The notes beneath the pieces are model-generated. The model ran no database searches, was not told the origin of the DNA, and saw only the letters and a program-made list of their open reading frames with translations. The translations under genes were made by a program, and so were the position numbers. A DNA stretch of 64,000 nt. It comes from Chiloscyllium plagiosum. Taxonomy: Eukaryota. The stretch covers positions 94,717,350-94,781,349 of the forward strand of contig NC_057718.1 in NCBI RefSeq assembly GCF_004010195.1, given 5' to 3'. Shown here in pieces: positions 3,200 through 63,920 of the stretch (positions are counted from its first letter, which is position 1; the number at the start of each line of letters is the position of its first letter).

Positions 3200-3415
3200 G
3201 GAGAAAGTGAGCACTGCAGATGTTGGAGATCAGAGTCGAAGAGTGTGGTGCTAAAAAAGCACAGCAGGTCAGGCAGCTTCCGAGGAGCAGGAAAATCAAC
3301 GTTTCGAGCAAAAGTCTCATTCCTGATGAAGGGCTTATGCTCAAAACGTCAATTCTCCTGCTCCTTGGACGCTGCCTGATGGGCTGTGCTTTTTTAGCAC
3401 CACACTCTTCGACTC
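3200..3415. mobile_element. Palindromic PLE-derived element family 1 with hammerhead core
   Basis: Left arm is the reverse complement of the right arm; CTGATGA at 3323; duplication tcaagaca(c/g)tttggag at 3188-3203 and 3414-3429. Confidence 0.85.
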
Positions 3416-14020: not shown

Positions 14021-14253
14021 AAACCAAAGAACTGTGGGTGCTGGAAATCGGAACCAAAAACAGAAATTGCAGGAAAAACTCAGCAGGTCTGGCAGCGTTT
14101 GTGAAGAAAGGAATGGAGTTAACATTTCAGGTTCAATAACCCTTTTTCAGGATGCTACTGGTGAAGAGTAACTGGACCTAAAACATTAACTCTGCATTCT
14201 CTCCACAGATGCTGTCAGAACTGCTGAGTCTCTCCAGTAATTTCTGTTTCTGT
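14021..14253. mobile_element. Palindromic PLE-derived element family 2
   Basis: Arms cagaaattgc..gttaac and ttaactc..aatttctg are inverted; TSD acttgt(g/c)tatc at 14007-14017 and 14254-14264. Confidence 0.8.
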
Positions 14254-15406: not shown

Positions 15407-15967
15407 ATGACGTGGAGGTGCCAGTTTTGGACTGGGTTGGACAAGGTCAAAAATCGCACAATGCCAGGTTATAGTCCAACGGATATATTTGAAAGCACTA
15501 GCTTTCAGAGCGCTGCCCCGTCGTCAGGTGCTAGTGAGAGAGGAAGACCTGAGGCACAGAAGTTCTAAGGAAAAGATCAAAGGGTCATACAACTCATGCG
15601 AACAAATTAAACACACTTAAGATGGCTCTTAAATCTTTAATCAGTTAGAATGGAGGTGCAGGTTTTGAATGATTGATAAAACCTCAAGATGTCTTGGGGC
15701 AGTGACTTGAAAGAAATTCTGGGATTTGCATATTAACCAGTCGAAACCTGCCCCTCAATTCTAACTGATCAAAGATTTAAGAGCCATCTTAGGTGTGTTT
15801 AATTCATTTGCATGAGTTATATAACCCCTTGATCTTTTCCTTCTAAATTTTGTGCCTAACATCTTCCTCTCTCACTAGCACCTGATGAAGGAGCTGTGCT
15901 CCGAAACCTAGTGTTTTCAAATAAACCCATTGGACTATAGCCTAGCGTTGTGTGATTTCTGACCTTG
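15407..15967. mobile_element. Long palindromic PLE-derived element family 3 with hammerhead cores in both arms
   Basis: 15443-15678 is inverted to 15731-15967; cores CTGACGA..GAAAGCTA (minus) and CTGATGA..GAAACCTA (plus); flanks ttgatt/ttgatt. Confidence 0.85.
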
Positions 15968-18489: not shown

Positions 18490-18775
18490 AGGCAAACTTT
18501 GGCTGATGCCGGAATGCTGAAACAAACATAGAGAATGCTGGAACAAATCAGAAATTGCTGGGAAAATTTCTCAGCAGGTCTGGCAGCACCTGTGGAGAGA
18601 AAGCAGAGTTAATGTTTAGGGTCCAGTGACCCTTCCTCAGAACTGGACCTGAAACGTTAGCTCTGTTTCTCTCTGCACAGATGTTGCCAGGCCTGCTGAG
18701 TTTCTCCAGCAATTTCTGATTTTGTTTCTGATTTCCAGCAGCTGCAGTTCTTTGTATGCTGGGGAAACTGAACAG
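18490..18775. mobile_element. Palindromic family-2 PLE element (18548-18753) nested in an older family-2 arm
   Basis: Inverted arms meet at cctcagaactggacctgaaacgtt; atgctgg is repeated on both flanks. Confidence 0.75.
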
Positions 18776-26774: not shown

Positions 26775-27582
26775 GGGGTACTGAAAAGGGCTTTTGGTAC
26801 AATTGTCTTCATTGGCCAGTGCATCATGTACAGGAGTTAGGATGTCATGCTGTGGCAGTACCTTGCCTAGACTACTGCATTCATTTCTGGTCTCCCTGCT
26901 ACAGGAAAAATGCTGTTAATCTTGAAAGAGTTCAGGAAAGATTTATAAAGATGTTGCCAGCAGTTATACAGAGAGGCTAAATAGGCTGGAGCATCAGAGG
27001 CTGAGGGGCATGGATAGGGTGAATAACCAAAGTCTTTTCTTGCCAGGGTAGGGGAGTCCAAAATTAGACGGCATAGGTGTAGGGTGAGAGGGGAAAGATT
27101 TAAAAGGGATGTAATGGGCAACTTTTTCATGCAAAGGGTGGTACGTGTATGGAATGAGCTGCCAGTGGAAGTGGTGAAGGCTGGAACAATTACAGCATTT
27201 AAAAGGCATTTGGATGGGTACAAGAATAGGAAGGATTTAGAGGGATATGGGCCAAATGCTGGTAAATGGGACTAGATTAATTTCGGATATCTGGTCAGCA
27301 TGGACAAGTTGGACCAAAGGGTCTGTTTCCGTGCTGTACTTAGAGTCATAGAAATGTACAGCACAGAAACAGACCCTTCGGTCCAACTCACCCATGCTGA
27401 CCAGATATCCTAAATTAATCCAGTCCCATTTGCCAGCACTTGGCCCATTCCCTCTTGTACAGCCGCAACATGACTTCCCAACTCTTAGACTCAATGCTCT
27501 GACCAATAAAGGAAAGCATACTAAATGCCTTCTTTACAATCCTATCTACCTGAGATCCCATTTTAAAGTCTTTATGACTCTA
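26775..27582 (+). mobile_element. CR1 LINE 3' fragment (plus) with a minus-strand CR1 piece in its tail (27342-27565)
   Basis: PCLDYCIHFWSPCYRKNAVNLERVQERFIKMLP and GNFFMQRVVRVWNELP; tail-to-tail junction near 27340. Confidence 0.8.
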
Positions 27583-34111: not shown

Positions 34112-34306
34112 GGTGCTGGAAAAGCACAGTAGATCAGGCAGCATCCAAGGAGCACGAGAATCGATGTTTCGGGCATGAGCCCTTCATCAGAAATGTCCGA
34201 AACATTGACTCTCCTGCTCCTTGGATGCTGCCTGACCCGCTGTGCTTTTTCTTGTGCCACACTTTTCGACTCTGACTCTCCAGCATCTGCAGCCCTCACT
34301 TTCTCC
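34112..34306. mobile_element. Palindromic PLE-derived element family 1
   Basis: Inverted arms; minus core CTGATGA-A-GGGCTCATGCCC-GAAACATC at 34190-34163; another arm at 34408-34486. Confidence 0.85.
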
Positions 34307-40254: not shown

Positions 40255-41592
40255 ATATCGAGGCAGCATTAGTGCCACAGAACATTGAGGTCAATGGGGA
40301 ATGATTCCAGAACCTAGTAGAAAGGAAAATGATTGTGATCATTGAAAGACCATCACCTCACACTCAGATATTCTTCAGGGTAGATATTATAATTCACCTC
40401 TGGAACAGGTGGGATTTGAACCTAGGTCTCCTAGCTACAATGTATAGACACTGCCACAATGCTATGAGAGCCCCTCCATTCCTCAGGGGATTGTCCTTGG
40501 TCCAATCATACTTAGGTGTTTCATTAATGACTGTCCATCCTAAGTAAGGCCAGAAGCGGGGGAATTGTTATTCGTTTCATCGAACTCAATTCTATTCTGT
40601 GGCGGAGCCGGTGTTGGACTGTGATGGACAAAGTTAAAAATCACACAACACCAGGTTATAGTCCAAAAGGTTTATTTGGAAGCACTAGCTTTTGGAGCGC
40701 TGCTCCTTCTGATGAAGTTACCTGATGAAGGAGCAGTGCTCTGAAAGCTCGTGCTTCCAAATAAATTTGTTGGACTATAATCTAGTGTTGTGTGAAATTT
40801 AACACAATTCCATTAAAAAGCCTTGAGGTAATGATGAAACCTGCAGCACATGGAGTAACATCAGGAACAACCTATCAGCTGGGGCGGGTAATGGCAAGTA
40901 ATTTTCATGCCAGACACATGCCATACAATGACTATCTCCAACAAGAGAGAATCTAACCATCACCCTTTGACACTCAATAACATTACCATCCCTGGATACC
41001 CCACCCTCAAAATTGTGCAAGTTAATGTTGTGGACCAGTCATATAAACAGTGTGGCAACAAGAGTGGATCTTGTGGAGTTTGAGTAAGTGACTTCCCGAA
41101 TCCCCAAAGCTTGTCCTCCATCTGTAAGACACAGTGAGAAGTCTGCTTGAATACGCTCCATTTGCAGCTCCAACAACACTTAAGAAACTCAACATCATCC
41201 AGGTTAAAGCAACGTGCTTGGTTGGCACCACATCCACCAACTTCAATATTCACTCCCTTCATCAGCAGTGCACAGTGGCAGCAGTGTGTACCATCTACAC
41301 TGCAGCAAACACAAAGCTTCTTTTAACAGTACCTTTTAAACCCATGTCTACCATCTAGAAAGACCAAGGGCCTGAAATGCATAGGAACACCACGACTTTC
41401 AGTATCCCTGCAAGCCATATTCCACCTGACTTGGAACAACACATTATTATTCCTTCACTCTCATTGGGATTCCTTTGGTCATAGCACTGTGGGTTTACCT
41501 ACACCCAAGGACTACACTGTAGCAAGAAGGCACCTTCTCCAAAGCAAATGGGGAGAGGCAATAAATGCTGAGCCAGCCAGCAACACCCATGG
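40255..41592 (+). mobile_element. L2/CR1-group LINE RT and 3' end, degraded, with inserts
   Basis: PQGIVLGP..CFIND block; VRSLLEY..IQVKATCLVG..SLHQQCTVAAVCTIY; tail ggcaataaatgctg. The same tail family occurs at 12100-12275, 19940-20095, 49635-49785 and 59325-59460. Confidence 0.75.
40597..40803. mobile_element. Palindromic PLE-derived element family 3 (short)
   Basis: Inverted arms; plus core CTGATGA-A-GGAGCAGTGCTCT-GAAAGCTC at 40722-40750; TSD caatt(ct/cc)att at 40587-40596 and 40805-40814. Confidence 0.85.
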
Positions 41593-44340: not shown

Positions 44341-45344
44341 ACATTTTTCTCTTAGCATGGTAATAAAGCTGCAACCTCTTCCTCCACTTTTTGCTTTCCC
44401 AATATTGCCTGAATTTCCATACCCAGGAATAATAAATATTCAATCCTCTCTATTCCCATTTGGCTCTTTGCATCTGGCACAAATGTATTCCCATCTGTTC
44501 ACGCGTATCTGGGTCCTTCCAAAGTGCCCTGCAACATCTGATCATGCAGAAGGAAGCTTGCAGGGCCAGAGGAGATAGAATTTGTAGAATGCCCATTTCT
44601 AAATTCAGTTGCTCAAAGCTTCCAAGCAACTGTTTATATTGATAACAATAGAGGGATTTGGCCTCCTCACTTCTTGTTTCTACTTGGTTGAAGCAGAAGA
44701 TTAGAAGGCAAACCAATCAATGTTGTACTCCCAGCAGGGTGTTATGTACAAAGAAAACATGAGTCTTTGAAATGGGGCTGCAAATACAGTCATCCTGTCT
44801 TCCAGTTGCATTTACCTCGATCTTCCTCATTAGGAGCACAGATTGTAAATCATCCCTCAGTTTTGAAAGTACATACATCACTATACAGTCACCATGGAAA
44901 CAAACAACAGCTTCTCAAACATATGGCACTTCATTAAAAAATCTGGTTGCATTGACGTCGTTGCGTGTACAAACAGTGCCCTTGGAGAGGTTCAGGAAAT
45001 GGTTTCATCAAAATGGCATATTTTCAAGATTTGTCTACTGCGTCAAAGGTTACAATTAGTCAAGGTGAAAGCAGGACCGTCAACACAGAAGACACATTGC
45101 CATAACAATAAGAGAAAGTGCCAGAACTATCCAGGAGGTCAGGCAGTATCTGTCAAGAGAGGAACAGGGTTTCAGGTTGGGGCATGACCTTCCATCAGAA
45201 ATGGGAAAAATGTTAGAGATGGTTTTGAGCGAGGGGCAAGATGGGACAAGAATAAAGGAAGACCTGCAAGACGGAGGAAATCAGGAGAAATTGAAAGGCA
45301 GAAAGGATGGAGCAAGAAAAGAAATAACGATGCTGCTTGGCCTT

Positions 45345-46069
45345 TTTTTAATTCGTTCACGGCATGTGGGTGTCACTGCCTGGCAGCATTTATTGCTCAT
45401 CCCTAGTGGTCCTTGTGAAGGTGGGGGTGAGCAGCCTTCTTGAACCACTGCAGTCCACCTGCTGTAGGTTGACCCATCATGCCATTTGGGAGGGAATTCC
45501 AGGATTTTGACCCAGCAATAGTAAGGGGATGGCAATATATTTCCAAGTCATGATGGCAAGTGGCTTGGAGGGGAACTTGTAGGGAATGATGTTCCCATTA
45601 TCTCATCCCCTTGTCCTTCTAGATGGAACTGGTTGTGGGTTTGGCAGGTGCTATCTGAGGATCTTTGGTGAATTTCTGCAGTGCATCTTGTAGATAGTAC
45701 ATACAACTGCTACTGAGCATCGCTGGTGGAGGGAATAGATGCTTGTGGATATTGTGCTAATCAAGCGCGTTGTTTTGTCCTGGATGATGTCAAGTTTCGA
45801 GAGTGTTGTTAGAACTGCACCCATCCAGGCAAGAGGGAGTATTCCATCACACTTCTGAATTGTAGATGATGGACAGGCAAGTAGTCTTGATTTGGAGCCT
45901 TACCAGGTTAGCCCCTCATTCTTAGGTATGCCTGATGTTGCTCCTGGCATGCCCTCCTGCACTCTCCATTGAACCAGGGTTGATCCCCTGGCTTGATGGC
46001 AGTGCTTGAGTGGGGGATATGCCAGGCCACGAGGTTACAGATTACGTTGTAATACAATTCTGCTGCTCC
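45345..46069 (-). mobile_element. L2/CR1-group LINE 3' fragment
   Basis: Reverse complement of the family at 40255-41592 (gcatttattgc..cttcttgaaccactgcagtcc). Confidence 0.8.
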
Positions 46070-46169
46070 TTATGAGGGGGGAGTGAGGAAGGGGGGTTGG
46101 GGTTCTTAGGTTGACAGTCAGAGGGTGGGGAGGTAGGCGTCAGGTCATGTCCAATGTGAGAGGTAGTGG

Positions 46170-46771
46170 TTGTTGTGATTCTGTTCGCCGAGCTGGAAGT
46201 TTTTGTTGCAAACGTTTCGTCCCCTGGCTAGGCGACATCATCAGTGCTTGGGAGCCTCCTGCGAAGCGCTTCTTTGATGTTTCCTCCGGTGTTTATAGTG
46301 GTCTGTCCCTGCCGCTTCCGGTTGTCAGTTTCAGCTGTCCGCTGTAGTGGTTGGTATATTGGGTCCAGGTTGATGTGTTTGTTGATGGAGTTTGTGGATG
46401 AATGCCATGCCTCTCGGAATTCATGAATTCGACTGGGACAACACTACTATCATAGGGCAAGCCAGACAGAGAACAGCCAGGGAATTCCTAGAGGCATGGC
46501 ATTCATCCACAAACTCCATCAACAAACACATCGACCTGGACCCAATATACCAACCACTACAGCGGACAGCTGAAACTGACAACCGGAAGCGGCAGGGACA
46601 GACCACTATAAACACCGGAGGAAACATCAAAGAAGCGCTTCGCAGGAGGCTCCCAAGCACTGATGATGTCGCCTAGCCAGGGGACGAAACGTTTGCAACA
46701 AAAACTTCCAGCTCGGCAAACAGAACCACAACAAGGAGCACCCAAGCTACAAATCTTTGCACAAACTTTGA
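46170..46771. mobile_element. Young inverted Penelope/Poseidon-type PLE 3' end (family 4) with two intact hammerhead cores
   Basis: 46170-46422 is inverted to 46482-46734 with about 4 mismatches; encodes HEFDWDNTTIIGQARQRTAREFLEAWH..SINKHIDLDPIY; 14-bp TSD aggtagtggttgtt at 46161-46174 and 46772-46785. Confidence 0.92.
46657..46696 (+). ncRNA. Minimal type I hammerhead ribozyme motif
   Basis: GCA-CTGATGA-T-GTCGCCT-AGCC-AGGGGAC-GAAACGTT-TGC: stem I GCA/TGC, stem II with 6 of 7 pairs, palindromic ACGT in place of stem III; mirror copy at 46247-46208. Activity is not demonstrated. Confidence 0.75.
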
Positions 46772-48635
46772 AGGTAGTGGTTGTTAGGCCAAGTCCATTG
46801 ATGGGGTGGGGTGAAGATGAGGGCATATCGAATGGGTTCCAGGAGCAAGTGGGTCAGGTCCATTTTGGTTGGGCGCTGACATGTGGAAGTCGGTTCAATT
46901 CCTGGGAGCAGAGGGTTTGGGTCAGGTTTGGTGGGATATTAGTGATCTGGATGAGTTACAAATTTGAAATTGGAGAACTCAATGTTGAGTCCTCCGGGCC
47001 CTCACCTCCATCCAGGGCCCCAAACAGTCCTTCCAGGTGAGACAGAAGTTCACCTGCCTCTCCTCCAATCTAGTTTACTGTATCCGGTGCTCCCGATGTG
47101 GTCTTCTCTACATCGAGGAGACCAAATGTAATTGCATTTCACAAAGCAACTCAGCCGGGCCTGCAGGGGCTGACCTGACCTCTCAGTTACCACCCATTTT
47201 AATTCCCCTTCCCACTCCCTTTCTGACATGACCATCCTTGGCATCCTCTATTAGACACAATGAATCAGGCATCAAATTGGAGGAACAATGCCTCATCTTC
47301 CACCTGGCCAGCCTACAGTCCAACATTGAATTCTTCAATTTCAAATAACCTCCTTTCCTATCACCGACTCCCTTCCCAGCCCCTCCTTCTCCCTTTCATT
47401 CCTCTGATCCACCCTTCCTTCCAGCTACCAACCGGATTCATTCCTCCCATCAGCCAACCAGGTCGTACCCTGTGCTCACCTATCCCCACTTCACCACCCT
47501 TCCTCCCCCATCTCTTTTACATGCAGCTCCCCTTAACCTACCCCCAGTCCTAAAGAAGGGTTATACCCAAAACGTCGACTTCCCCACCTCCTGATGTTGT
47601 CTGGACTGCTGTGTTCTTCCAGCCTCCTGCTTGTCTACATCAGTAGAAGAGTTTTGTAGTCTATGAAGCTTCCAAGCCAGGAGAATTCAGATCGAAGTCC
47701 TCAAGCTGTTAGAATGGAGAAGTTTTAGGCCAGCAAAATTGCAAACAAGTTATTGATTTCAGACTTGAAAAAGAATCATAAAGTTGCCTGTCCAGTTGAA
47801 GGAAGAGAAACTGGAGACTATTAGTTCAGCAAGTTTCAAAACATAAAGTTGAAGTAATATCTCTTTGAAATTGAGTCCCTGTAACAAATGGTATTAGGAA
47901 ATAGATTAAAACTTAGTTTTCAGGTTATGTGCGTGTGTGTTGGCGAACATCTGCTGGTTCATGTGGATATGTTCTAGTGTCTAACATCATGTTGACCACA
48001 GACAAAAAGATTAAATGTATGATCTTTTAAGCCTGGTTTCATCCTGGGACATCAGTTGTCCAATATTATCATGAACTGGAACAATAGTAAATGCAACTGA
48101 GTACCATGGTTGCAAAATCTAGCCTCTAATAAAATTGGGATAGCAACTGGATAAAGACCAAAACAAATATATTAAAACAACCTGGTGCAGAATGTAAAAG
48201 AAAGAGACTACAAGTCAAATCCAGTTCAGAAAGTGGTTGGCACAGGGTATGAAAAATAAAACAGACACAGAGATATGATGAGACAGGCTAATGAAGAACA
48301 AGACAGACAGATTTATTTTCCATTCCAGAAGCAAAAGTTAATGGAGATGAGCCTTGACAGGTTAAGAAGCACTGTTCCAGCCTGTTAATCATTTGAGGTT
48401 TACACTATTAGGTTTTATTTTCAATGTAAACTTGGGTTTAATGATATTGAACATGTTGTAATATTGCAAAGCAACCCTAGTTTGTACATGCAGAAAGATA
48501 TACAGTACTTATTGTCACTAGAGTCACACTTCTAACAAAAAAAGCAGACAACACGCACAGATATAAGAATAATCTCAGACCGGAGAAGACTCACTTGTCC
48601 ACCCAGCTGCAAAGCTAGAAATATCATGTGTGGCC

Positions 48636-56728: not shown

Positions 56729-57350
56729 ATACTCTAATGAATCTATTATAGAGTGTGCTGTCGTTCTTAACATGATTTTCATTGATTTTAATTCAGTTTA
56801 CTCCCAGGCGGAAGACTAGACATTTATTGAGCAAACTTATCATCAGTAATAAACCAATTTTTAGCTGTATGAAATAAATTGTACCAGATTACTACTCTTA
56901 AATGCATCAAGCAATACATTTCAGTGCGAACATCAAAAGGAATTTTTTGTTCTATTACATTGTTGCACGGTGTCAGTTTGTTACATATTTTATATTTGTG
57001 TCTACTCAAATAGATTTTTTCAAAATTGCAATCTAACCAACACAATGTTGGTTGAATTTTGGATTCATTTTCCCATCTCCACTCAAATCCTGAATCTCTA
57101 CTCCATGCTCTGTTTTAATTGAAGCTTCCTAAGGGAATACTCGCAGAGTCGGATTTTATACCGGTTTAATTTTCCATTGAATTTAAATTCAAAATTATCC
57201 CCCTTGCTTTTGTCGCTAGCTTGATCCATATCCATACAGTCGAGTGCCTGGTGTGATAGATAACCTCTGCAGTACTCTGGCAGGATTCAGGAGGGCTAAA
57301 GCTTCATAACAGTACAGTCTTCATTTGGACAGATGAAAAGAAACAAAAGC

Positions 57351-57565
57351 GTGATGCTGGAAAAGCACACCAGGTCAGGCAGCTTCCGAGGAGCAGGAGA
57401 ATCAACATTTCGGGCATAAGACCATCATCTGGAACCTTCCTGACGAAGGGCTTAAGCCCGAAAAGTCGATTGTCCTGCTCCTCAGAAGCTGCCTGACCTG
57501 CTGTGCTTTTCCAGCACCACACTCTCGACTCTGATCTCCAGCATCTGCAATCCTCACTTCCTCCT
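57351..57565. mobile_element. Palindromic PLE-derived element family 1
   Basis: Inverted arms; plus core CTGACGA-A-GGGCTTAAGCCC-GAAAAGTC at 57440-57467; agatgaaaa repeated at 57331 and 57566. Confidence 0.85.
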
Positions 57566-61626: not shown

Positions 61627-62837
61627 CCTTTGTGCATCAACCTTATTAAGGCCAGTTTGGATCTTATAAACTTAAATTAAATCACCTCTTAATCATTTAA
61701 CTCCAGAGGAAACAACCCCAGTCTGTTGACTCTTTTTCATAAGACAACTTGGTCATTCTGGATAATAAACCTACTGAATTGTCCCCAGCGTGTTGACAGC
61801 TTTCCTTAAATATGAAAATTGACACTGCACATCATATTCAACATGTGGTCTCACCAATGCCATGTTAAACTGAAGCATGGCATCTTTACTTTTATTTTCA
61901 ATTCCTGTCACAATCAAGGAAAGCACTCCATTAGCCTTCTTAATCACGTGCGGTATTTGCAATGGGGGTGCAACATTTAAATTAGACATGTTTTCTAATT
62001 CTTTCTGCCAAAATGGATAAATTTACTTCTTCCTCTATCTGCAAAATTTATGCCCACTTACTCAACTGATCTGTGTTCTTGTTACATGATTGTCACAACA
62101 TACTTTCTTACTTAGCTTTGTATCATTTAGCAACTTAGTCACAAGGCCTTTGTTCCCTTCAGCTAATTCATTGAGGTATGATTTTAAACATCGAGGTCCC
62201 AGTACAGATCCAATTTATCATATCCAGAGTTCATCACATTTCAGTCAGGTTAGTTAGTGGGAGATAAACTTCCACCAGGAAGACATGCAGCAGGTCCGTC
62301 AAATACTTCAATTGTTACATCCATAGTGAGAAAAATGCACTGCAAAATTAACCTTAGAAACAGGAGAAGACAGAAGTAAAAGCATGATGTGACAGGTTAT
62401 GGATGAAAATGTGATTTTTGAAGAAGTTGTAAATTTTGCAGAGAAATTATTTATATCTTTTAATGCTCACTTGATGTGCTCAATTCTTTATGATTAAAAA
62501 TGTCATACTTTGATATTATTAACTGACCTTGCACATTTAGTATAATCACATGTCCCAAATGCTGCTTTTCAGTGAATAATAATTCTCACAGTTTCTAACA
62601 AGGGCTTTCTTCCCTCTGGAATAAGTTCTGTCTAATGACTGATCCTAGCTTTGTTGGAGAAAAATTGGAGTCCGTTCCTCACATTTCTGGAAGGTTTTTT
62701 TCAACTAATCTTCTTCAAAAATAGCCTAACAACACAAAGAGTCTTGTTCACACATCACTTCATTGCATTATTATCACCATCCTACTTGATTACACTGTAC
62801 TTGCCAGCTCTTTTTTTTCCACAAAGTGTTTCTTTCC

Positions 62838-63712
62838 CAAAACTTTAAATAATTCTCCCAAGATGGTTAAATTTACGTCTACCCATGTAGAATTAATGGA
62901 ATTCAGCCGTAATAAGCTTAGTTGGAGGTAGCAAGTGTTTGAACCCAAAAAGTGATGACTAAATGAGTTAGATGTGTAAGTTAGGGCCAGGTATTATAGT
63001 TATGAGTCATAGAGACCCATCGGTCCAACTCATCCACACTGACCAGATATCCCAAACTGATTGAGTCCCATTTGCCAACACTTGGGCCATATCCCTCTAA
63101 ACCCTTCCTATTCATATACCCATCCAGATGCCTTTTAAATGTTGTAATTGTACCAGCCTCCATCACTTCCTCTGGCAGCTCATTCCATACACGCATCATC
63201 CTTTACATGAAAAGGTTTTCCCTTTGGCCCTTTTAAATCATTCCCCATTCACCTTAAACCTATGCCATCTAGTTCTGGGCTCCCCTCCCTAGGAAAAAGA
63301 CCTTGGCTGTTCAACCTATCCATGCCCCTCAAGATTGTATGATCCTCTATAAGGTCACCCTCAGCCTTTGATGTTCCAGGGAAAACAGCCCCAGCCTGTT
63401 CAGCCTCTCCCCAAAGCTCAAACCCTCCAACCCTGGCAACGTCCTCATCAATCTTTTCTGCACCCTTTTAAGTTTCACAACATTTCCTATAGCGGGGGAA
63501 TATCTGGTTGGTGTGGATGAGTTGGACCGGTGGGTCTCTATGACTCACAACTATAATACCTGGCCCTAACTTACAGATCTAACTCATTCAGTCATCACTT
63601 TTTGGGTTCAAACACTTGCTACCTCCAACTAAGCTTATTACGGCTGAATTCCATTAATTCTACATGGGTAGACGTAAATTTAACCATCTTGGGAGAATTA
63701 TTTAAAGTTTTG
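62838..63712. repeat. 213-bp inverted duplication of a CR1 3' junction
   Basis: 62838-63050 versus 63500-63712, about 6 mismatches. Confidence 0.92.
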
Positions 63713-63920
63713 TGAATTGAGCACGGCATTCCAAAACTGGCCTAATCAATGTCCTAATCACAGCCTCAACATGACCTCCCAATTCCTATACTTAATGCAC
63801 TGACCAATAAAGGAAAGCATATTAAACACCCTCTTCACTCTCCTATTAACCAGCAACTTCACTTTCAAGCGCCTACACTCCAAGGTCTCTTTGTCCAGCA
63901 ACACTCCCCAGAACCCTATG
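63003..63920 (-). mobile_element. CR1 LINE 3' fragment interrupted at 63500-63712
   Basis: RVWNELPEEVMEAGTITTFKRHLDGYMN; CR1 sequence resumes after 63712. Confidence 0.88.

Follow-up and report, generated by a model that had tools for sequence, protein, structure and literature searches.

A well-preserved inverted Penelope-like element stub in a shark genome, possibly built from two target-primed cDNAs

The hairpin at 46161..46785 (625 bases, both flanking target copies included) of the analysed stretch of Chiloscyllium plagiosum DNA (64,000 nt, hereafter the window) is almost certainly an insertion of a Penelope-like element (PLE). Judged from their sequence, both arms of the hairpin derive from the end of a Penelope/Poseidon element of sharks of the bamboo/epaulette type and are truncated at the 5' side. 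The original prediction of a single PLE insertion with an inverted arm, a tail, a target-site duplication (TSD) and twin hammerheads is supported by our analysis. To explain this structure, we lean towards a mechanism in which two target-primed cDNAs were joined head to head in one event. As a protein gene the locus is dead, and it is an ordinary, well-preserved retroelement stub.

Results

The features of the locus are collected in Table 1. The inverted arms (46170-46422 and 46482-46734) measure 253 nt each, lie 59 nt apart and are 98.4% alike, and their four mismatches (46415/46489, 46371/46533, 46186/46718 and 46178/46726) reflect changes on both arms. An exact 14-nt direct repeat brackets them, while a common 14-mer in two 35-nt windows 600 nt apart arose in only 6 of 20,000 random draws. 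The near-perfect 253-bp hairpin with about four arm differences, the 14-bp TSD and the extra tail of about 37 nt on the right arm had each been predicted, and all are present, the tail on the right side only. The last bases of the left TSD copy double as the end of the left arm, an overlap of 5 nt, or of 6 nt when the family majority sequence is used. On the right, the first A of the TSD copy may be the last base of the element, since 1,314 raw reads exit after 46772 and 390 after 46771, and the TSD may accordingly be 13 or 14 bp long. Each TSD copy adjoins a 3' end of the element, so that both strands are antisense when read outward from the target. The target has a GC content of 43%, and the nearest run of N is more than 8 kb from the locus.

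Table 1. Features of the inverted PLE insertion, in window coordinates.
Feature	Position	Strand	Evidence
Left TSD copy; last 5 nt also match the left-arm end	46161..46174	+	repeat search, family read ends
Left inverted arm: PLE end, 5'-truncated and tail-less, that stops at the inner family end (~+64 to +70 from ATG)	46170..46422	-	arm alignment, reads
Mirror copy of endonuclease C-terminal frame	46228..46422	-	tblastn, 62/64 identical
Mirror minimal hammerhead	46208..46247	-	pattern match, identity to right copy
14-bp palindrome across inversion junction; only C at 46422 common to both arms	46417..46430	.	read ends before 46422
Right unit, 350 nt: PLE end, 5'-truncated, tail present	46422..46771	+	alignment, reads
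59-nt unpaired spacer = 5' excess length of right unit	46423..46481	+	arm alignment
C-terminal 84 codons of GIY-YIG endonuclease + stop	46422..46676	+	protein comparison
Minimal type I hammerhead, predicted cut 3' of 46693	46657..46696	+	pattern match; features as in the available part of PMC4209133
ATG within hammerhead + first 35 codons of next tandem ORF	46666..46771	+	28/35 identical to shark RT protein P0064
37-nt tail bounded by both family ends	46735..46771	+	390 + 1,314 raw reads exit after 46771/46772
Right TSD copy	46772..46785	+	repeat search, reads

The target also resembles the element itself. Positions 46163-46172 and 46774-46783 match the complement of the element interior at 46551-46560 over a perfect 10-mer (12 of 13 nt). 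Matches of this kind occur for 53 of 20,835 14-mers of the window (0.25%) and for none of the 268 14-mers of the flanks. Whether it reflects chance or RNA-aided target choice, the match is unexplained. An origin of the target flank as an old antisense copy of the same family was rejected, as the alignment scores equal those of shuffles (80-298 of 300 shuffles reach the score in 12 tests, as do 71 of 560 window controls).

Three shark proteins share 83-86% identity, at their endonuclease C-terminus, with the open frame at 46422-46673 (84 codons). Among 666 candidate proteins the frame gave 10 matches, seven of which come from Chiloscyllium punctatum or Hemiscyllium ocellatum and show 78-90% identity. 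In the longer relatives an RT is followed by a GIY-YIG domain, at Pfam scores below the curated cut-offs; this order is found in both P0001 and P0003, which are 86% and 85% identical over the locus piece. The 84-aa piece itself yielded no Pfam family. Truncation has removed the GIY/YIG motifs and the RT from the frame, and the endonuclease is retained only from its last His onward. The shark relatives carry two cysteines between the motifs GIY and YIG and a downstream His, the DKG motif is present in P0064, and none of the four aligned shark proteins has a Zn-finger-like CX2-5CxxC cluster just before the endonuclease. As far as the accessible text of PMC8557442 goes, the Penelope/Poseidon clade is defined by the DKG motif and by a CCHH motif whose two cysteines lie between GIY and YIG, and a CX2-5CxxC linker between RT and endonuclease occurs in Neptune and Nematis. 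By these motifs the element is placed in the Penelope/Poseidon clade.

The ATG at 46666 lies in another frame, and the 35 codons that it opens match the N-terminal part of P0064. The unit has the layout of a pLTR, with an ORF end, a hammerhead and the opening codons of a following ORF. One ORF thus passes at its end into the start of another, an arrangement that would require a tandem or circular template. Among 101 longer relatives only P0064 is labelled a shark protein, and its sequence stops short of the endonuclease; a full-length shark RT-plus-endonuclease protein was not found among the 101. Two predicted Chiloscyllium isoforms, P0004 and P0007 (a 5'-nucleotidase domain protein and MAP3K7), end in the endonuclease sequence of the element, which may be due to exonisation or to an annotation artefact.

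A hammerhead pattern matches the window six times, twice at the locus, once per strand. The predicted twin hammerheads are two identical copies, as the stretch 46650-46705 and its mirror agree over all 56 nt. The right copy consists of a 3-bp helix I, a CUGAUGA core, an extra U before a bulged 6-bp helix II, GAAA and a loopless palindromic helix III, whose segment self-pairs at a computed -7.7 kcal/mol. It thus carries the marks of the minimal type I class: the core CUGANGA/GAAA/UH, an extra base after position 9, the pair G10.1-C11.1 and a palindromic helix III. The family is split about 50:50 at 46664 and its mirror 46240, which is position 7 of the hammerhead core, a position that is free to vary. 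According to the original prediction, a complete hammerhead directly follows the GIY-YIG frame. The hammerhead is indeed found in both arms; it does not follow the frame directly, however, because the endonuclease stop (46674-46676) lies within helix II and frame and ribozyme overlap. The predicted cut follows +28 from the ATG.

Retrozymes are non-autonomous elements with tandem direct hammerhead repeats and circular RNA. A retrozyme was ruled out here, since retrozymes are non-coding with hammerheads in direct tandem, whereas the hammerheads of the locus are on opposite strands and in PLE coding sequence. Folding of the two-copy RNA without constraints did not give the catalytic fold, and a stable stem-loop in the tail was not supported (z = +1.17). 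Rfam returned six matches at E<=1 over the 64-kb window, all of them miRNA models elsewhere and none a hammerhead. In the available part of PMC4209133, metazoan PLE hammerheads of the minimal type I share with the locus the extra base between positions 9 and 10.1, the G10.1-C11.1 pair, the long bulged helix II and the loopless palindromic 15.2-16.2, and differ in their helix I of 4-5 bp, against 3 bp here. The same text reports that a single minimal motif is inactive and dimers are weak, and it already describes opposite-strand hammerhead pairs 100-700 bp apart. By analogy, the hammerheads of the locus would be passengers, and cutting would need a partner copy or a protein.

Other copies of the family were surveyed by aligning four of 21 sequencing runs (X1, X5, X16 and X19) to 45700-47200 at 90% likeness. 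The raw reads of X19 reach a summed depth of ~7,350 over the two hammerheads. With a genome of ~4 Gb, a size taken from the accessible part of PMC10587355, the family would have roughly 15,000 copies, which is of the order of 10^4. Most aligned family reads are 90-95% alike to the locus. Their ends are concentrated at two places: 439 raw reads exit before 46169, the mirror of 46735, and the reads on the right exit after 46771/46772 (Table 1), in both cases into diverse, AT-rich flanks. The two family ends, at +70 and +106/107 from the ATG, bound the 37-nt tail. Three letters of the tail differ from 91-93% of the family reads and may mark a minority subfamily, as an X1 unitig with two of the three letters still breaks at the family end. 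At the two family markers that are split about 50:50, 46552 and 46240/46664, both arms carry the same state.

Among the joints listed we distinguished 12 antisense-to-sense joints of other copies (two rows at 46330/46602-3 were merged). Eight of the 12 are offset by 28-197 nt, in either direction, and nine carry letters between the two sides. Four lie within 10 nt of symmetric, against ~7% expected (p ~0.008, in a non-random subset). The junction of the locus is not one of the 12 listed. Joints at so many different positions indicate that the hairpins formed anew at each insertion.

At the inversion junction of the locus, 4,689 raw reads extend past 46422 on its upstream side; there they agree on one sequence (agreement 0.91), which is unlike the left arm. 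Since the reads continue with other letters, 46422 is a truncation point, and the C at this position is all that the arms have in common there. Both the palindrome across the junction and the recurrence of GAATTC at 46482, its third occurrence, are present as had been predicted. Only 92 of 66,822 simulated junctions (0.14%) had a palindrome of at least 14 nt. The palindrome plausibly fits a short snap-back before the switch, for what is one site picked after the fact.

The proposed microhomology-guided template switching at GAATTC needs revision. Plain annealing of GAATTC to GAATTC was rejected as the way of joining, because it predicts a single GAATTC where two are present, and the overlap at the junction is 1 base. 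A switch would therefore need an extra step, a 5-nt snap-back on the longer cDNA that offers GAATTC to the other end, and the unusual palindrome fits this addition. Such a snap-back followed by a join resembles synthesis-dependent end joining.

A fold-back made by the assembly is a very improbable source of the hairpin, even though no read or contig among the records listed from the four runs bridges the hairpin centre or the left junction, and though X1 and X16, two contig runs of organism A, have zero depth at 46108-46158 (their records may be filtered). The arms are unequal at both ends, differ at four positions with changes on both sides and are enclosed by an exact 14-bp duplication, which together make an assembly fold-back unlikely. 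In addition, an X1 contig that starts at 46743 crosses the right junction and runs to 46947 with one other letter. On the element side it spans 29 nt, which falls 2 below the bridging threshold, and its start would be where a 31-mer unitig begins at the family end. Like X16, it differs from the window at 46855, and it may represent another haplotype. In organism B the alignment of a contig (X5) begins at its letter 81 and covers 46772-46947, opening precisely at the TSD start, and the left-flank bin 46108-46158 is covered by X5 alone, at a depth of 31.5 compared with 30.5 on the right. Organism B thus likely has the empty site, the joint itself being absent from the rows listed. Insertion polymorphism was not found, where X16 has no listed record across either junction and X19 offers only ~0.5x single-copy depth, and the window contains no paralogous empty site. 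The X5 contig ends at 46947, and the X1 contig departs there with another ~800 letters, while X16 still matches up to 46973; a structural polymorphism may lie here, 160 nt to the right of the insertion.

Assuming that the arms were identical at the start, their 4 differences in 253 nt correspond to 1.1e7 generations (Poisson 3.1e6-2.9e7) at 7e-10 per generation, the mutation rate of the epaulette shark in the available part of PMC10587355. Without the two CpG changes the estimate is 5.7e6 generations (0.7e6-2.0e7). An age based on the arms would be inflated by RT errors or two templates and lowered by gene conversion. In the flank, organism B differs by 5 letters and 1 gap in 176 (2.8-3.4%), compared with 1.6% between the arms. 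As the flank divergence exceeds that of the arms, an insertion after the split from organism B fits the data. The prediction of a recent insertion from a recently active family holds in part. The insertion is young for this genome, and 'recent' may mean millions of shark generations; present activity is not supported by arms ~1.1e7 generations apart, with no polymorphism and no intact master found among the 101 longer relatives.

Of the ten local hairpins that we examined, the locus is the best preserved, and it is the youngest such copy in the window, as had been claimed. None of the other nine, which were hand-picked from pattern matches, matches the family of the locus by BLAST. Five of them have a TSD candidate scoring at least 8 together with 29-43 extra nt on one side, and four do not, whereas 2 of 59 random sites do (60 were drawn and one was dropped for N). 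Older hairpins of other hammerhead-type families, 73-85% self-complementary, are located at 3233-3415, 14055-14252, 15442-15967, 18545-18722, 34120-34249, 40633-40803 and 57348-57523, and TSD candidates with a one-sided extension occur in five of the older hairpins.

A PLE of a different family, older and decayed, occupies 46962-47640 directly right of the insertion. It has an inversion junction of its own near 46999/47000 and retains remnants of GIY-YIG at 47008-47346 as well as a hammerhead, likewise decayed, near 47550. It is likely of the Neptune/Nematis type, because the upstream family letters read as a Cys-x-x-Cys motif. On the other side, the minus strand of 45300-46075 holds a decayed LINE with peptide remnants, which we take to be of the CR1/L2 type. 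Positions 62834-63053 and 63497-63716 form a 220-nt inverted duplication (96%) without a hammerhead pattern. It combines ~180 nt of flank with the initial 40 nt of a dispersed repeat, which fills the 443-nt middle. A related repeat forms a head-to-head hairpin at 27239-27455.

Discussion

In the mechanism to which we lean, the endonuclease of the element would nick both target strands 13-14 bases apart, and each nick would prime its own cDNA from element RNA. The template would be a tandem or circular transcript, as suggested by the ORF end that runs into an ORF start. The top-strand nick would prime at the inner start (+64 to +70) and yield the tail-less arm, and the bottom-strand nick would prime at the outer start (+106/107) and yield the arm with the tail. 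Both cDNAs would have stopped early, 60 nt apart, and their unfinished ends would have been joined over 1 common base, perhaps after a templated snap-back that made the palindrome.

Several observations argue for two primers. The TSD copies adjoin the 3' ends of the element, antisense outward on both strands, and the family reads end at the same two places with diverse flanks. Eight of the 12 joints listed are offset and nine have intervening letters, as two independent truncations predict. By analogy, the mechanism would also agree with the PAc protein of Anolis, which in the accessible part of PMC11167929 nicks and extends both strands from two starts. On the other hand, the rare junction palindrome and the 5-nt overlap of target and left arm fit a fold-back at least as well, and four of the 12 joints listed are near-symmetric against ~7% expected. 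The arms copy the same segment, which would require that one RNA was copied twice or that there were two templates. The target has 43% GC, while the family flanks and, in the available text, the PAc targets are AT-rich, and no record listed bridges the hairpin centre.

The most serious competitor, which we regard as possible and less probable, is a single target-primed cDNA, begun at the tail end, that bent back on itself at CATG, moved across 57 nt from one GAATTC site to another, was then copied towards its start and joined the other target end through 5-6 nt of microhomology, a course close to the self-priming of Arkhipova et al. (2013). A folded cDNA explains the palindrome and both GAATTC sites together and accounts for the 5-6 nt overlap at the left end. 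It also agrees with the excess of near-symmetric joints (four of the 12 listed) and with the two ~50:50 markers that the arms share, and the available part of PMC3846280 calls junction palindromes common in PLEs and reads them as self-priming. It leaves unexplained, however, the fixed inner end of the family, which corresponds to an RT start site of the Anolis protein in the accessible PMC11167929 text, and it requires an extra cut. The fold at CATG leaves a loop of 2 nt, and eight of the 12 joints listed are strongly asymmetric.

Two further explanations have little to recommend them. A fixed non-autonomous unit that is copied whole, similar to a MITE, would suit a compact, TSD-bounded sequence with very high family depth; it is very doubtful in view of reads that continue at 46422 as linear family sequence, of other copies whose joints lie at 12 different places, none listed being the junction of the locus, and of a window that holds no second copy. 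Still less probable is the fusion of two separate insertions in opposite orientation by later deletion or recombination: among ~10^4 copies such neighbours occur, but both arms sit within a single exact duplication, they are 98.4% alike when most family reads reach 90-95%, and the same anatomy recurs in other local hairpins.

The two-primer mechanism has a relative in the twin priming of L1, in which both nicks prime cDNA and an inversion arises within one TSD, and in which the parts are adjacent, non-overlapping pieces of one RNA. Two nicks and an inversion in one TSD would be common to both, and the locus differs in that both arms copy the same segment.

Canonical EN+ PLE insertions, as described in the accessible parts of PMC3846280 and PMC8557442, consist of an inverted 5'-truncated copy with a 30-40 nt tail at one end, a TSD and junction palindromes. 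The locus resembles them in its inverted arm, one-sided tail, TSD, head-to-head arrangement, junction palindrome and pLTR with the first ORF codons. It differs from them in its arms, two short stubs that enclose no full ORF, and in its TSD of 13-14 bp compared with 8-10 bp in rotifer PLEs (PMC3846280; PMC8557442). As far as the available literature goes, PLEs are thus already known to carry an inverted pLTR, a tail, a TSD, a junction palindrome and hammerheads on opposite strands. This anatomy is the published norm for PLEs and so not surprising in itself.

The closest biochemical counterpart is Poseidon of Anolis carolinensis. The available part of PMC11167929 reports that purified PAc, a predicted dimer, nicks both strands and extends them without a strand difference. 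In the same text its RT starts at two internal sites, which bound the tail, and primes without homology; the ORF begins in stem II of the hammerhead, 26 nt before the cut, and the targets are AT-rich. The locus is similar in its ORF start in stem II, its cut ~27 nt downstream, the two AC-rich ends that bound the tail and the C-terminal GIY-YIG of its relatives. In contrast, its outer end lies at +106/107, compared with +111-118 in PAc, and 5-6 nt of its target, which is not AT-rich, coincide with the arm end, unlike in the PAc text (PMC11167929).

In the literature covered, which was partial and makes absence weak evidence, we found no published description of a shark PLE and no explicit two-primer model for PLEs, and the available portion of the hammerhead survey PMC4209133 does not mention sharks. 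How PLEs make their inverted repeats and tails is named as an open question in the accessible parts of PMC8557442 and PMC11167929. One locus cannot settle this question, for which the insertion described here is a clean example, and it connects two RT starts and two-strand extension in vitro to a genomic product. For PLEs in general, we consider the chances evenly balanced that the inverted pLTR and one-sided tail stem from dual target-primed reverse transcription, in which a dimer would nick both strands, each nick would copy the same RNA segment from one of two fixed starts, and host end-joining would fuse the cDNAs and leave snap-back palindromes. Shark genomes with ~10^4 stubs per family would hold enough copies to test dual priming statistically by means of subfamily markers in the arms.
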